Source: Torpedo marmorata (lineage: Eukaryota). Taken from it: DNA of 64,000 nt. Under the pieces are notes generated by a model, which saw only the letters and a list, made by a program, of their open reading frames with translations, was not told where the DNA came from and made no database searches. Shown in pieces: positions 47,774 through 55,979 of this stretch; position 1 is the first letter of the stretch, and every line of letters starts with the position of its first letter. Position numbers and translations under genes: made by a program. The stretch covers positions 122,388,001 through 122,452,000 of the forward strand of contig OZ360221.1 in the NCBI GenBank assembly GCA_977017645.1. The letters run 5' to 3'.

Positions 47774-50700
47774 GAGATACTTGTTCTTGACAAGTTTCAA
47801 TTAATTTACTAACAAGTCCAATAGGTTCAAAAAAACTTTATTTACACACGTGACTTGCAGCAATCTTCAATGACTTAAATATCTTCTTTAAACGAAACAT
47901 AAACAATTCTTGATAACGATGCTTAATAAATTCCTTTAAACGATTCCTTTAAATGTCTTTAAACGACTTTAAATGGTCAATGAAACTTCTTTAAACGATC
48001 AATGAAAGATATGGCGATCTCTCACCCTCCTCCATCGCCATCTTTTTCTATTCCTTTTTCCCCGATCCACGCACACTCCACCGCGCACACTCCACGCACA
48101 CTCCACTGCACATACTGCTGTCATTTCCCAACTGCGCATGCGCCCGTCGTCACTCTAGCGCATGCGCAGAGCACTAAATAAGCCTAGCATGGCCCACTAA
48201 CCTCCGCAAGTCCTCTGAAACCCCCCGCGACCAAGGTAAGTAATCAAGTCTACGGCTCTTACACCGGCCCCTAATTATTATAATTAGACGCAATGTCTTA
48301 AATAATAATTACACAATCAATTACAAATAACAATAACCATATAACATTCAAACAATATACAAATCTTCTTTCTTCTTTCTTCATAAGACCAGAGTGTACC
48401 ATAACTCTGAATCAACAAAAGTCTGTAACCTGTGAAGTATTCAAATAAAGTCAGTTTGTATTGATCAAAGTTCCTCCGTCTCCAACAGAAGGCAGACCTT
48501 GTTAATAGGTCTATTTAGAAAGCCAGTCTTAGTTTTAATTCGAACTTGACGTACAAATCCCCTTTTGTCCTGAATAGTCTCAATATTTTTTTCAAGTAAC
48601 CAGGAGTTCTTGGAGTTGAATCGTCCATAATAATTACAATGTCTCCTCAAAGTTCTTTTATTTCCAGAATCTTTGAGTTAAAACGTAGATACAGTTTTTC
48701 TTTTGAATTTAACACGAGGCACTTCTTCAGCATGTCATTTCACTTTATTCCTTTCTTCAGCATTCCACTTCTCATGTGAAGAATTTAAACTCTTAGAACT
48801 AGAATTTGAATATTTATCTGATTCTCTCGATTTTAATAAACGAGTCTCTTTAACCACTCTGGTTTCTATTGCCTTTTCCTGCAATTCCAAATCCAATTTT
48901 GCAACTTTTAATTCAGTCTCAGTTCCTTCTGAGAAATTAATAACTTGATTTGAAGTGAAAATATCATGTGATACATTGATATTTCTATTGTCAACCCTGC
49001 TGTGGTAAACTTGAAATTTTTGAATTTTTTCATCTTGCTTGTTACATTTCTGCAATGCAATATCACTTTCTTTCTGCATTGTTAGTAGCTGAACATTCAA
49101 TTTACATTCTTGATTGTTTTCTATAATCAACTGTTTTGTGTTATTAACCAATAACTTGTTCTCTTTCAAAATATTAATCTCTTCCTCCAACCTTTTACAT
49201 TTTGATAATGCTGAATCTCTTTCCTCAATAACTGTATTCATTTCTTCAGCAGTTATTCTTTTCTGCTTTCTGACTGCGAATTTTACTTAAAATTAAATCT
49301 TTCTGTTTACTGTTTTCATGATTATCTAATATTTCCAATTCCCCTTTCAACATTTTGTTCTCTGAATTCAATTGCATTAAATTATCATTCACATTCTTCT
49401 TTATTCCATCAGCATAATTTCCTGTGTTCTCCAGTTTTACATCACATTGCAACATTTCTTCATTGACTTTGTCTGTTGTAACCTCTGAACTACAAAACCT
49501 ACTTTCAAATTTGTTCTCAGTCACTTGTTTTATTCCTGTATCTGATTCAATTACACATGAATAATCAATAGTATTATCTGCAACATCTTCTAATACTTCA
49601 TTTTCATTCATTTCTGATGTAAATAATTCTTTCAATGTTGTTTTAAATACCCTTGATTTATTTTCGCATTGATCTGTTTTCTTTTCTTCAAAAGTGATTT
49701 TCTTATTCACAGTCTTTTGCTCTTCCCTTAACTCATCAACTTTCACAACCAAAATCCTGTTAATATTTATCCCTAACTGTTCCTGAGCAATATCATTATT
49801 TCTTTCCAATGGTCCATTGATTGTCCAACCAAGCTTGGTTCTAACAGCGTAAGGTCCATTCCTTCTACTCCGTATTACTTCTAGTGGTTCCAAAACCTTT
49901 GGCACATCTGAACCAATCAGCATTTCTATCTCAGAGTTAATTTCAGGTAAATAAACATTTTTCAGATAAGACCACCGTTTAATATCATTTTGATGAGGAA
50001 TATTTCCTTCATGCACAGGCATAGTCTTCTGAGTAAATAAACTTGGAAGATCATAAAAAATTTTGTCATATAATCCAGCAACCTCTAAGCCTGAAACAAT
50101 GCTAGTTTAAACGACCTTTTCTTGTCCCATGGTTTTCAACATAATACTTGACCTTCCTTGAATATTAAGTTTGTTCATTAGTCCTTCCGTGCAAAAAGAT
50201 GCAATGCTGCCTGGGTCTAGAAATGCATATGTATGTACTATTGCATCCCCTTTCTTGGTCTTGACTTGTACAGACACTATTGAAAGTTTGCAGTTATCCA
50301 CACCGGCCCTGGTAAGACCACTTGTCTGAACCGAGGTTATAACATTGTTTTCTGTTGTTTCCTTTGTGTCTGTTTGCTCCTTTTCCAATTACTTGTTTCT
50401 TTGATGGATATGCAACATTCTAGGATATTTCAATTTGCATATGTTACAATTAATTCGCTTCTCACGGTTTTTACTGATGTGTCCTTTACACAGACAGCTA
50501 AAACATATTCTCATTTTCCTTTAATAAAGCGATCTTCTCATTATGTTCCTTTTCTAACTGTAAACACATTTCCAAAGCATGTCCACCTTGACAGAACAAA
50601 CAACTCTTTTCATCAGGCAAACTTTCCTTTTCCTTATTTACTTTGTCCTTTTCTTTATTTACAACTGACACATTAGTAGCAAAAGTACTCCTTTTCAATT

Positions 50701-52270
50701 TCGGACTAGTCTGTGAGTTCGACCTCCTTACATCTTTGTTCCCCATTGAATTGTTTCTAATATTTCCATATATTGGATCTGTTTTAATGTGCACCTGTCT
50801 TTCAAGAAAATTTACCAAGTCCTTTAAATTAGCTCTTCAACCGTAATTTTCTTGTAAATCACAAGCCAAATTTCTCCATCTATCCCACAACTTGTAAGGT
50901 AATTTTTCTAAGATGATTCGCATATTACCAGGCACTTCAAGCTCACGAATATTATCAATATCTTCCATGACATTACAACATCCTCTTTAAAAATAGAGAA
51001 TATTCTTGTAGAGACTTTACATCATTCTGTTTTATTGATGTCCATTTAAGAGCTTTATCCATATAAGCTAAAGCAATTCGATGCTTGTTGCCAAAATGTT
51101 GTTCTAGTAAAGCCTTAGCTCGGACTAATCCTCTGTCTGAATACATATGTTGACAACTCTTTACCAGTTCTTTTGGATGTCCCTTTGTGAACATTTCCAA
51201 ATAATAAAGACATTCATCATGATCTTGGCATTTATTTTCAATATTGTGTTTGAAATGATTGGTACTGAAGTGGATCACCATCAAAAGTTTGTATCTCTTT
51301 CTTGGGTAAAGAAGAGAGAGACTGTAACTGAATCAATGATGCAGCAATTTCATTTTGTCTTCCCTTGGATGACAATACAATGCTCTGTTCACCGTTTCTT
51401 ATTGCAGGTAATGTATCTGGAAACCTCACTGGTATAGTTTCTCCCATATTTCTGATGCTTGACTCAAATGACAATGAAGCTGCATCATTCGACCGAATCC
51501 AAGCCGCAGCTTTGTCCAGATGTTACCACTGGTACATGTGACTCGATACCAATATGCTCCTGAAGGATTTGTCCTTGTATTTGCAAGTCTTGTACCCCTG
51601 GTTTTAAAATATCTACCCTTTTGGTTGGTTTCTTTTCCTGTGACTCTTTTTTAAAATATAACCTTTTATTATCAGACACTTTAGATAATTTACTTCGAGC
51701 ACCAGATACCATTGAGCCTTCTATTGCTTTCTTTTTTGCCTTGGCAATAGTCATGCTTGCTTCCAGCTCCTGCTGTTCTTTTCTCTGCCTTAGCTGCTCC
51801 TTCTCTTGCCTTAGCTGCTTCTTTAGCTGCTCCTCTTTTTGTCTTATCTGCACCTCCTTTTGTCTTATATGCTCCTTTAGCTGCTCCTCATTTTGTCTTA
51901 TCTGCTCCTTCAGCTGCTCCTCCTTTTTTTTGTCTTAGTTGCTCCTCCTTTTGTTCTAAAATATGTTTATCCTTAAGCGTTTTTTGTTGTGCAAGAAGAG
52001 CAGCCAAGTTAACATCAATCTTTGTACGTGACGATGCAGAACTTGAAGTACAAGAAACTGGAGCTCGAACCAAAACTTCGTTTGCTTCTCCTGTTTTCAG
52101 CATTTGAGACATTGCTTGTATTTCGTCCTGCAGGTCATATGTTGTCTTCATACTTACCTCTTTCTCCAATTCGAATTGTACGTCCTTTGCATCTTCATCC
52201 TCTTCATTTTCTTCATCCTCTTCATTTGGTGACACAATTTCAGCCATTTCCTGGCTATCTTCTTGTTCAT

Positions 52271-52492
52271 CTAACGAAGCCGCTTCTCTTCCTTTGCCAG
52301 CTTCAATCTTGCGATGAGAACCTTTTTATTTCTACTTATATCTAGTTTCATTCGCTTCAATTCTTCTTTAATATCCGCAACCTTCATGTCTTTAATACGT
52401 TGGTCCTTAACAGCAACATCAGCGGTTGCTGCGTCAGCTACTGATACATCAGTAGCTGCTGCATCAGAGGCTGCTGCGGCCATTTTACTCAT
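52271..52492 (-). pseudogene. BEL Gag N-terminus with a SAP-like domain
   Basis: IKDMKVADIKEELKRMKLDISRNKKVLIARLKLA matches the SAP consensus (L.V.ELK.EL..RGL...G.K..L..RL). Confidence 0.65.
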
Positions 52493-52995
52493 CTTGTTCC
52501 ACCATCCTTCTAGCATACACAACACTAGCCAAATCAACAGTCCCCAATGGACCAGCGGCAGCAAATCCAATCTGTGTTCTAACTTGCCAAAGATACACAG
52601 AAGGAGTCCACAGACTTATGCCTACCACTTCAGATGACTGTAATGTGCTGCTATTCACAAACAAGTTTCCACCACAGCATCCGTCAATATTATCGCTGAT
52701 TTTCAAGAAATGGTTTCACCAACGTATTTATAGTACACTTTACTATAAGATTTGAAGTTTTAAATCCCTCTCTGATTATTACTCATGACAGATGGATGTG
52801 GATTACAAACTGCCCCCAACTCGAGGCATCTTCAACATGGCCGCCATTTTATTTTAAATATCAGTCCAAAGCACAGAGAGATTATTCTATCCTCTTTCCT
52901 TCAATTTTCTATTCTAAACAACCACTTTCATTGACTAATTATTATTGTGACTTCAATCCAACAAATAGTCACTTGGAGGCTGAGAGATACTTGTT

Positions 52996-55304
52996 TTTTT
53001 TTATTATTTTATTTAAACTTTTAAATCACAAAATACATGAGATAAAATATAAAATTATCAAAATACATGTGATATATTTTCACCCCCCACCCTCCCTCCC
53101 CTCCCCAACACCCCCCCATCCCCACTAATCTAATAAAAAATAAAAATAAAAATTAAAGTAAAATAGAAAAAAGAAAGAAAAGAATAGAATGAGGGGAATA
53201 CCTTCTAAACTAATTCTATTATGGAGGTCAAGTATGCCAGCAGATCTGATATCTAGAGATCTTCAAATCCTTTAACCCACAGCTCTCATATATGGGCTCC
53301 AAATTTTCAAGAAAATATTATATTTATTACGTAAATTATAAGTAATTTTTTCCAGTGGTATACACGAACGGAGTTCTGCATGCCATCTTTCTAATCCTAA
53401 ATCTAAGTCAGATTTCCAAGTAATAGCAATGCATTTTTTTGAAACAGCTAAAGCAATTCGCAAAAATTCTACTTGAAACATATTTAATTTCTTTTTAATA
53501 CTAAATTTTTTAATATCTCCAAATAAAAATAACAGGATCCATTGGAAATGCAATATTAAATACTTTATCTAAAAATTTTTTAACTTTCAACCAAAAATCT
53601 TGAATATTTGGACAAAACCATGTAGAATGAACAAAAGAACCATCCTCTCTATTGCATCTAAAACATAAGCCTGATAATGTCGGATTAAATTTCTTTAATT
53701 TTTTAGGTGTTAAATATAATTGATGAAAAAAATTATATTGTACTAATTTATATCTAACATTGATAATCTTCGTCATACTTAATTTACATAAATCTTTCCA
53801 ATGATTTTCATCTATATTTACATTTAAATCTAATTCCCATTTTAATCTTGATTTATGCAATCCTATTTTAGGCATTTTCCTCTGAAACAATTTATACATT
53901 TGAGAAATAAATTTATTAACATCTCCATTAGTAACTAATAATTCTAATTCATTTTGTCTCGGTAAAATCAAAGCATAACCTAATTTCTTAGTCAAAAAAG
54001 CTTTAACTTGATAATAAGCTAAACATGTATTATCTGGTATATTAAATTTATCTTTCATTCTTTGAAACGTAATAAATTTTCCAGCTTCAAAACAATCATT
54101 AATCTTCTTAATACCTTATTGAAACCAAATTTTAAGTAACTGATTATTAACAGTAAATGATATAAGTCCATTTTGATATAATGGCATATTTGAAGAAATT
54201 AATCCTCTTCAACCTATCTCTTTATCCGTCTTACCCCATACTTCTAACAAATGTTTAATAATCGGTGAATTTTTCTTTTTTAATGATATTAATTTAGAAT
54301 CCCATTTATAAATAATTTCTTCTTTAAGATTTTCTCCTATATTATTTAATTCTATTTTAATCCAAGCAGAAGATTTAGTTGAATCAAAAAATTCATTGAC
54401 AAATTTTAATTGAGCTGCTTTATAATAATTTTGAAAATTAGGAAGTTGCAATCCACCCATCTCATAATTCCAGGTTAACTTTTCCATACTTACTCTTGCT
54501 AACTTTCCTTTCCATAAAAATTTCCTAATAATAACATTTAAATCTTTAAAAAATTTTTGAGTAATTCCAAAAGGAATTGATTGAAAAAGATACTGAACTC
54601 TTGGAAAAATATTCATTTTAATACAATTTACCCTTCCCATTAAAGTTATGGGTAAATCTTTCCAATTCTCTAAATCTTTCTTTATTTTCACAAATAATGG
54701 TAGTTAATTTAATTTATATACATTTTCCAATTTTGTATCAACCTTAACCCCCAAATATTTAATTCCTTCTTTAGCCCATTTAAATTGTGTAATTTCTTTA
54801 CATCTAGTATAATCACCTTGAGATAAAGCCATTATTTCACTTTTATCAGAATTAATTTTATATCCAGATATTTCACCATATTCTCTTAATATAATAGATA
54901 GTTGTTGAAGTGATATAATAGATTTTGTCATATATATCAATACATCATCTGCAAACAAACTAATCTTATGTTCTTCCATACCAACTTTAATACCCACTAT
55001 CTTAGGATCTTTTCTAACTAATTCAGCCAAGGGTTCTATCGCCAAAACAAATAAAGCTGGTGACAGGGGACATCCCTGTCTCGTAGAACGTATCAAAGAA
55101 AATTTTGGCGATATTTGTCCATTTGTAATTACTTTAGCGGATGGTTCTTTATATATAGTTTTAATCCAATTTATAAATGTATTTCCAAAACCAAATTTTT
55201 CTAATACCTTAAATAAAAAATTCCATTCTAATCTATCAAAAGCCTTTTCCGCGTCTAATGTTACAACTAATGGTAAATCTTGTTTCTTTTTATGCAAACT
55301 AATT
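52996..55304 (-). mobile_element. 5'-truncated L1 LINE (RT to tail) inserted in the BEL 5'LTR
   Basis: LDAEKAFDRLEW, TRQGCPLSP, SLFADD, CFRCN..H..WFCP. Poly-T on the left. TSD AGAGATACTTGTT (~52983-95, ~55305-17). Confidence 0.9.
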
Positions 55305-55979
55305 AGAGATACTTGTTCTTGACGCGTTTCAATTAATTTACTAAAAAGTCTAATAGGTTCAAAAAACTTTATTTACACACGTGACTTTGCAGCAATCTTC
55401 AATGACTTAAATATCTTCTTTAAACGAAACATAAACAATTCTTGATAATGATGCTTAATAAATTCCTTTAAACGATTCCTTTAAATGTCTTTAAACGGTC
55501 AATGAAACGTATTTAAATGATCAATGAAAGATATGGCAATCTCACTCACCCTCCTCCATCGCCATCTTTTTCTATTCCTTTTTCCCCAATTCGCGCATGC
55601 TCAATGCGCATATTCCACCGCGCACATTCCACCACGCATACTGCCGTCACTTCCTAACTGTGCATGCGCCCGTCGTCACTCTAGCGCATGCGCAGAGTAC
55701 TCTACTGGCCTAGCATAGCCCATCAACCTCCGCAAGTGTTCCGAAACACGCCGAGACCATCGGAGCGCCGTGACCAATGTAAGTAATCAAGTCTGCGGCT
55801 CTTACAATGGTGTCTACAGATTTTCATGATTTACTTCTGTTTACAAGACATACCAGGTATGAGTGAGTTGTCTTATGAGGAAAGATTGGCCAGCAAGGTT
55901 TGCATCCGGTGAAGTTGAGAAGAATGGCAGGGCATGATGGGAACATAACCTAACAAGGGCTGTTAAGTGGTTAAACAGG

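Follow-up and report, generated by a model that had tools for sequence, protein, structure and literature searches.

Acutely transforming retroviruses are replication-defective, helper-dependent gag-onc fusions, in which spliced host coding sequence is read in frame with Gag. Host genes have also been captured by long terminal repeat (LTR) retrotransposons, such as maize Bs1, which we take to be low-copy and not a BEL/Pao element. In the available part of a review (PMC13317346), Bs1 is described as an LTR element carrying segments of three host genes in a chimeric open reading frame (ORF) that is transcribed and translated. The accessible text of Tan et al. 2016 (PMC5131818) deals with LTR-mediated retroposition, where host mRNA takes the place of a stretch of the internal ORF at sites of microsimilarity; it includes multi-gene chimeras (the Pao element BATUMI, BEL18_AG and the four-gene mouse "Super" retrocopy) and retrocopy loci that re-transpose non-autonomously (18 sites for 9 retrocopies). 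For circular RNAs (circRNAs), Dong et al. 2016 (PMC4897178), in the portion at hand, took a non-colinear exon junction as the mark of a retrotransposed circRNA and found 33 copies of mouse circRFWD2 with LTR-rich flanks, the mechanism being left open. Here, we describe a BEL/Pao element located in a 64,000-nucleotide stretch of Torpedo marmorata (contig OZ360221.1 of assembly GCA_977017645.1, positions 122,388,001 to 122,452,000 of the forward strand; hereafter the window), in which most of Pol has given way to host sequence.

Our reading, to which we assign a probability of about 0.7, is that spliced pieces of three host RNAs, all in frame, took the place of Pol in this non-autonomous element, that these were captured by template switching, and that the element uses the enzymes of a related, Pol-bearing family (the helper) and carries the captured pieces (the cargo) as stuffer.

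The insert is a mosaic of three host genes

A first-pass annotation, made from the letters of the window, had described a BEL/Pao element lacking reverse transcriptase (RT), with a novel, coiled-coil-like segment in place of Pol. The loss was confirmed: ~3.2 kb of helper Pol are swapped for ~1.1 kb, with RT, RNase H and the integrase core all missing. A single-sequence AlphaFold model of the insert predicts long helices (H84-155 and H161-247), with a predicted local distance difference test (pLDDT) score of 80-96 in the MIPOL1 part, no compact fold and a predicted template modelling score of 0.25. The segment is not novel, though; it consists of captured host RNA, in a mosaic of BRCA1, MIPOL1 and Elongin A pieces.

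A full phmmer scan of the insert against 1.84 billion proteins gave 39 matches. Insert residues 2-144 resembled skate BRCA1 (1.4e-21) and residues 139-270 MIPOL1 (2.2e-29), and the 10 matches that were looked up comprised eight MIPOL1 clusters, one BRCA1 and one uncharacterized. The Elongin A piece was recognized by Pfam (6.7e-16), PDB and homologues, the Pfam domain being found in copies with a longer cargo; in the insert of the window's own subfamily (family A) Pfam gave no match, and a word-based protein search with the insert returned none of 4658 candidates. We have mapped the host loci and exons of BRCA1 on C61, MIPOL1 on C40 and Elongin A on C41. Exon junctions are crossed without introns in all three captured genes, and every cargo piece keeps its native frame in the fusion to Gag-protease. 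Several cargo junctions show a few letters in common, which would be candidate microsimilarity; deletions have since reshaped the oldest junctions.

An origin of the insert from decayed Pol or duplicated Gag was considered and rejected, with local alignment scores against the helper L073 and protein sets falling within those of shuffles. The score against the Pol of L063 (56.5) was slightly above the maximum of 50 in 15 shuffles.

A back-splice junction in the MIPOL1 part

The MIPOL1 pieces are out of order in the insert, amino acids 330-448 lying ahead of 188-283. At base level, the end of host exon h is joined to the first base of the upstream exon b, at 49000|48999 in the window and likewise in 7 of 7 other copies shown. 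Exons b-h amount to 780 nt, in frame and stop-free, and 330 kb of host DNA contain a single instance of each, flanks included. Outside the presumed circle lie exon a and exons i-j, which had matches only at the host locus in first looks whose counts are floors. The MIPOL1 part is therefore very probably derived from a circular RNA, which would be 780 nt long. In the available text of PMC9888537, an exonic circRNA is made from mouse Mipol1, and a preprint (10.64898/2026.01.21.700838), as far as it was accessible, reports that HIV-1 virions package host circRNAs.

Reverse transcription that switched template on linear mRNA could also have scrambled the order, as could a trans-spliced or exon-repeated transcript. 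Such a source would suit the 3 nt of microhomology at the junction and the microhomology-type junctions elsewhere in the cargo, and the accessible part of PMC4897178 allows that other routes can produce non-colinear junctions. We find it improbable, nevertheless, because both ends lie exactly at splice sites, whereas the other capture junctions lie within exons. Of 17,560 possible backward jumps carrying 3 nt or more of microhomology, only 9 would create any back-splice junction (a chance of ~5e-4), the 330 kb of host DNA hold no tandem exon copy, first looks found no captured MIPOL1 sequence from beyond exons b-h, and the mouse gene does yield a circle.

In one copy (L088:3836-4955), ~409-nt MIPOL1 tandem repeats that include the back-splice junction lie inside one 459-amino-acid open frame. 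As evidence for a rolling circle they were discarded, the unit being ~409 nt and not 780. Reverse-complementary repeats lie in the introns flanking the putative circle (47 matches, one of them weak and within 5 kb); the circRNA reading does not draw on them.

A Pol-bearing helper in the same genome

Among 20 fetched Pol-bearing BEL loci, 14 belonged to the close (helper) family, most of them with the same LTR. The helper Gag-protease is ~76-81% identical to that of the element, five helper loci have frames of 2043-2134 amino acids, and one has LTRs that are 100% alike. Pfam recognized Peptidase_A17, RVT_1, rve, DUF5641 and DUF1759 in the helper. In the window it found SAP (PF02037, E 9.8e-7) and the DUF5641 integrase tail (E 1.4e-6) above cut-off, and DUF1759 in Gag weakly (E 0.0095). 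Based on the DUF1759 Gag, the DUF5641 tail and relatives with a Peptidase_A17 Pol, the element is a BEL/Pao LTR retrotransposon, non-autonomous and mobilised. This agreed with the annotated lineage, including its fusion of SAP-bearing Gag, protease and a helical segment, and a helper does exist. The SAP motif, acidic tract and KEEQLRQ-type repeats noticed in Gag are all present; the helper L073 has SAP as well (PF02037, E 2.6e-7), so that the domain is inherited and not special to the element.

The element was said to rejoin the last part of the integrase, the polypurine tract and the LTR. It does so as DNA, but in 57 of 57 readable copies the integrase tail stands behind a stop (54 TGA, 3 TAA; 5 of 62 copies unreadable), and it thus appears to be retained untranslated. 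The terminal stop and the residues before it resemble the integrase end of an older backbone. Ribosomes reading through the single in-frame stop would make a Gag-protease-cargo-integrase-tail product, an idea favored by the position of the tail, in frame behind that one stop, and by its ratio of nonsynonymous to synonymous substitution rates (dN/dS) of 0.04 against the helper. We regard this as very unlikely: the family-specific changes in the tail are 0 nonsynonymous and 1 synonymous, consistent with a recent swap from the helper; the stop alternates between TGA and TAA and, with its preceding residues, looks like an old integrase end; and a second subfamily (family B) retains only the last ~10 tail codons.

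The reading frame is kept while residues drift

In the window, the protease frame (50106-49246, 286 amino acids from stop to stop) runs on into ~160 residues of E/K/N-rich sequence, as had been noted. The further, separate ORF of the first-pass annotation corresponds to a 183-amino-acid frame (49286-48735) that comes after it in this copy; in the family the two are one frame. Of 62 copies examined, 41 had both ends delimited, and in 9 of these the frame stays open all the way from the protease junction to its terminal stop. In one natural copy an unbroken ORF of 1236 amino acids reaches from SAP to the end of the insert; helper homology ends at residue 880 of this ORF, and Pfam found no RT, RNase H or integrase core in it. 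The catalytic Asp of the protease is retained in 53 of 54 copies.

Selection was analyzed on 60 family A copies (59 loci plus the window) out of ~10,000. The family-wide cargo differences from the host genes were 112.5 nonsynonymous and 38.5 synonymous over 343 codons with no stop, where 8.8 stops were expected (P 2e-4); the changes private to single copies were 312 nonsynonymous and 84 synonymous, with 23 stops. Insertions and deletions were multiples of three in 6 of 6 family-wide cases versus 11 of 43 private ones (host-based counts). The dN/dS values of the three cargo parts were 0.63, 1.04 and 0.51, MIPOL1 having 1.04, and the pooled proportion of nonsynonymous changes did not differ from that of the private, neutral ones (Fisher p 0.30). 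The cargo is conserved as a reading frame, and its residues drift near neutrally.

Proposed mechanism

The host RNAs would have been captured by template switching of the reverse transcriptase. The element would then provide its own Gag, and perhaps protease, and borrow RT and integrase from the helper, with the cargo likely being translatable stuffer rather than a functional domain. A long untranslated tail can trigger RNA decay; an open frame carrying translation almost to the 3' end would leave no such tail and would most likely shield the RNA. Because a stop in the cargo would leave Gag-protease whole, selection most likely acts on the RNA, with the helical tail protein probably tolerated as a passenger.

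Several points weigh against this reading. The 3 nt of microhomology at the exon h-b junction (AG|C) leave room for a linear-mRNA switch or a trans-spliced RNA, and the circRNA step draws on one junction, that is, one capture event, seen in genomic DNA. One of the six in-frame insertions or deletions (9 nt, in BRCA1) is probably a change of the host gene and not of the element. The dN/dS of 0.5-0.6 in BRCA1 and Elongin A leans to weak constraint, at the low power given by 66-145 codons per part. Finally, the analyzed copies are top matches and not a random sample.

The cargo peptide might instead have a job, its long helices from MIPOL1 and BRCA1 aiding Gag oligomerisation, winning a place in helper particles or interfering with host proteins. 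The conserved frame with all pieces in their native frames, the long predicted helices, the dN/dS of ~0.5-0.6 in two parts and the ~5:1 excess of the element over its helper (see below) would all suit such a role, which we nonetheless consider unlikely. The pooled dN/dS is not distinguishable from that of neutral private changes, and the MIPOL1 helix itself has a value of 1.04. The Elongin A Pfam domain of family B has been lost in family A, and cargo length is highly variable across subfamilies. In the available text of PMC5131818, native frames are usual in young LTR retrocopies without selection (14 of 17 in Drosophila). The idea of the first-pass annotation that the fusion is a dominant modifier of helper particles was likewise left unsupported, as cargo dN/dS is indistinguishable from neutral decay.

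A bolder version, in which a BEL/Pao particle packaged and reverse-transcribed a host circRNA and the resulting Gag-protease-BRCA1-circMIPOL1-Elongin A fusion became a selfish accessory protein with which the element outcompetes its helper 5:1, survives a change of helper and, as the retrotransposon equivalent of a gag-onc virus, seeds ~10,000 BRCA1 fragments across a vertebrate genome, seems doubtful to us. We favor the translatable-stuffer reading.

Mobility and copy number

The insert was matched at 93-100% identity by all 40 scored DNA matches, the window included, and at 91% or more by all 150 protein matches, and all 9 copies displayed had an identical protease-side junction. Full LTR pairs were present in 22 of 39 fetched copies and diverged by 0.6-8.8% (median 4.35%). 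Target site duplications (TSDs) of 5 bp, scored by eye, were perfect in 14 and had one mismatch in 4 of 20 readable LTR pairs. The LTR termini are TG...TA and not TG...CA, with ends TATA or TAATA (L003-L039, L063-L078), and no TGG-type primer-binding site was seen after the 5' LTR in the element or helper copies inspected. In L039 the LTRs differ by 0.6%, which suggests recent activity. Within family A, L039, L064 and L066 form a subgroup that has a TAA stop and LTRs resembling those of the helper.

Genome-wide, a 20-mer pattern across the junction had 4,565 exact occurrences, rising to 10,550 when up to two mismatches were allowed (controls, 0 and 5), and a helper Pol 20-mer occurred 2,001 times. 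The resulting ratio of ~5:1 is rough, since the junction pattern has two degenerate places; it fits the annotated suggestion of a parasite. The pattern count is a floor, and the genome holds about 10,000 copies of the element, which would amount to roughly 1% of it if most are near full length. Four cargo-bearing copies lie within introns of the host MIPOL1 gene itself (G000:C40:64314001-64643900), with ~0.6 expected from the junction count. Extrapolating from these four, were the 330-kb region typical, would give ~60,000 copies; we have preferred the pattern count. Candidate tallies from first-look searches (49,385, 39,002 and 3,208) do not measure copy number and were set aside.

Subfamilies and history

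Family B, an older subfamily, carries a longer cargo that is closer to the host genes (BRCA1 ~88-94%, MIPOL1 ~93-96%, Elongin A ~90-96%) on a backbone only 65-78% like the helper. Family A has a trimmed cargo, ~79-87% like the host, and its backbone is 85-90% like that of the helper. The BRCA1 and Elongin A breakpoints of family A recur in a small group C. In a tree of the MIPOL1 part, host and family B clustered, followed by C and then A, with supports of 97-100 (21 rows; the bootstrap is rough and the order not fully settled). Family A changes absent from 12 helper copies numbered 0 in SAP, 0 in the Gag core, 0 in the knuckle region and 1 in the integrase tail; in the protease there were 10 nonsynonymous and 1 synonymous. 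Together, these data point to a single capture on an older BEL backbone, with a cargo that later shrank through in-frame deletions, and the old cargo would then have been recombined onto the Gag and 3' end of the present helper.

Contigs from four public sequencing runs of other organisms cover the insert, with the junction bridged by single contigs in two of them, so related species likely have the cargo too.

Some copies depart from the common layout. An additional, more upstream Elongin A piece stands ahead of the BRCA1 piece in L139, L140, L141 and L143, which suggests that the same mRNA was captured more than once or that the founder was longer. Short group C elements of ~4 kb (L084, L094) have a rearranged Gag without the Gag core, and L094 keeps a 678-amino-acid open frame into the cargo. 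Two family B frames (L089:4819-6600 and L099:4971-6434) cover the N-terminal portion of the Elongin A Pfam domain, which is lost in family A; this region presumably binds Elongin BC. Family A copies are nested within family B copies in L096 (in opposite orientation) and in L139.

The window copy

The window copy is dead. Against an open natural copy it has 16 frame-shifting gaps, a small number of which fall within the repeat region or at the ends. As annotated, two LTRs and a polypurine tract are present (Table 1); its own TSD is unreadable because the 3' LTR is cut. Its two LTRs are broken at one and the same LTR position. In the 5' LTR the break holds an L1 with a target duplication, in the 3' LTR an L1-like piece below 47774; ectopic recombination or coincidence may account for this. 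A preference of L1 for this site found no support, as 0 of 34 other LTR copies are interrupted there.

Table 1. Features of the element copy in the window
Feature	Positions	Strand	Remarks
5' LTR, first ~500 bp	55306..55806	-	begins TGTAAG
5'-truncated L1-type long interspersed nuclear element	52998..55305	-	later insertion in 5' LTR, with poly(A) and target duplication; zf-RVT E 9.4e-5, under cut-off
Remainder of 5' LTR	52943..52997	-	
SAP domain	52301..52396	-	Gag N-terminus; also in helper
Acidic tract and KEEQLRQ-type repeats	51764..52230	-	in Gag; present in helper too
Gag core and zinc-knuckle region	50420..51332	-	core DUF1759-like, weak; frameshifted in this copy
Aspartic protease to protease/RT linker	49722..50290	-	FLDPGS motif; end of helper homology
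BRCA1 mRNA piece	49293..49721	-	captured; crosses exon junction without its 8.7-kb intron; 79-87% to host gene
MIPOL1 exons f(part)-g-h	49000..49300	-	captured, intronless; 83% to host gene; MIPOL1 spans 49300-48843 in all
Back-splice junction	48999..49000	-	MIPOL1 exon h donor directly onto upstream exon b acceptor
MIPOL1 exon b(part) and c(part)	48843..48999	-	captured; 81-nt in-frame deletion
Elongin A pieces	48669..48855	-	captured; end of large exon, then remnant of later exon
End of family ORF and stop	48647..48668	-	by resemblance, likely integrase C-terminus of old backbone
Helper-type integrase tail (DUF5641)	48465..48646	-	apparently untranslated
Polypurine tract	48264..48276	-	
3' LTR	47774..48263	-	shortened by second L1-like piece

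Comparison with known systems

A literature search with incomplete coverage of subscription journals and repeat databases turned up neither this element nor any back-splice junction within the ORF of an amplified LTR element. The capture mechanism itself is already known; what is new is LTR-mediated gene capture on a large scale and with a back-splice junction. The locus offers a nucleotide-exact fossil of what is very probably a back-spliced RNA in an LTR element, with the helper in the same genome, and makes LTR template switching a candidate route for the circRNA retrotransposition whose mechanism the available text of Dong et al. 2016 (PMC4897178) leaves open. At ~10,000 copies, the history of capture, in-frame trimming and backbone swap can still be read, and in such non-autonomous elements selection on the reading frame becomes separable from selection on the protein. 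Speculatively, fragments of BRCA1, MIPOL1 and Elongin A in their thousands might be a source of small RNAs that silence the host genes. The fragments will confound annotation and circRNA calls in these fishes: element transcripts would carry the same junction, and would mimic a host circRNA unless told apart by sequence.

By analogy, the element may be likened to the gag-onc retroviruses, being defective, apparently helper-dependent and fused in frame to spliced host sequence; unlike them, it lacks env, is inherited and shows no sign of selection for the function of the captured protein. With maize Bs1 it shares the segments of three host genes in one chimeric ORF; Bs1 is a plant element, and the accessible part of the review (PMC13317346) does not mention a back-splice junction. 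The products of LTR-mediated retroposition (PMC5131818) similarly hold intronless host sequence in place of part of the internal ORF. In the text available, however, those loci are young and occupy one to few sites, and the word "circular" does not occur, whereas here ~10,000 copies, a backbone swap, a frame kept through 15-25% divergence and the back-splice junction are found. As in the circRNA-derived pseudogenes described in the accessible portion of PMC4897178, the junction runs exactly from donor to upstream acceptor, with no parental sequence outside the circle exons; in contrast to them, it lies inside a Gag-fused ORF with two LTRs, TSDs, a known helper and ~300x the copies.

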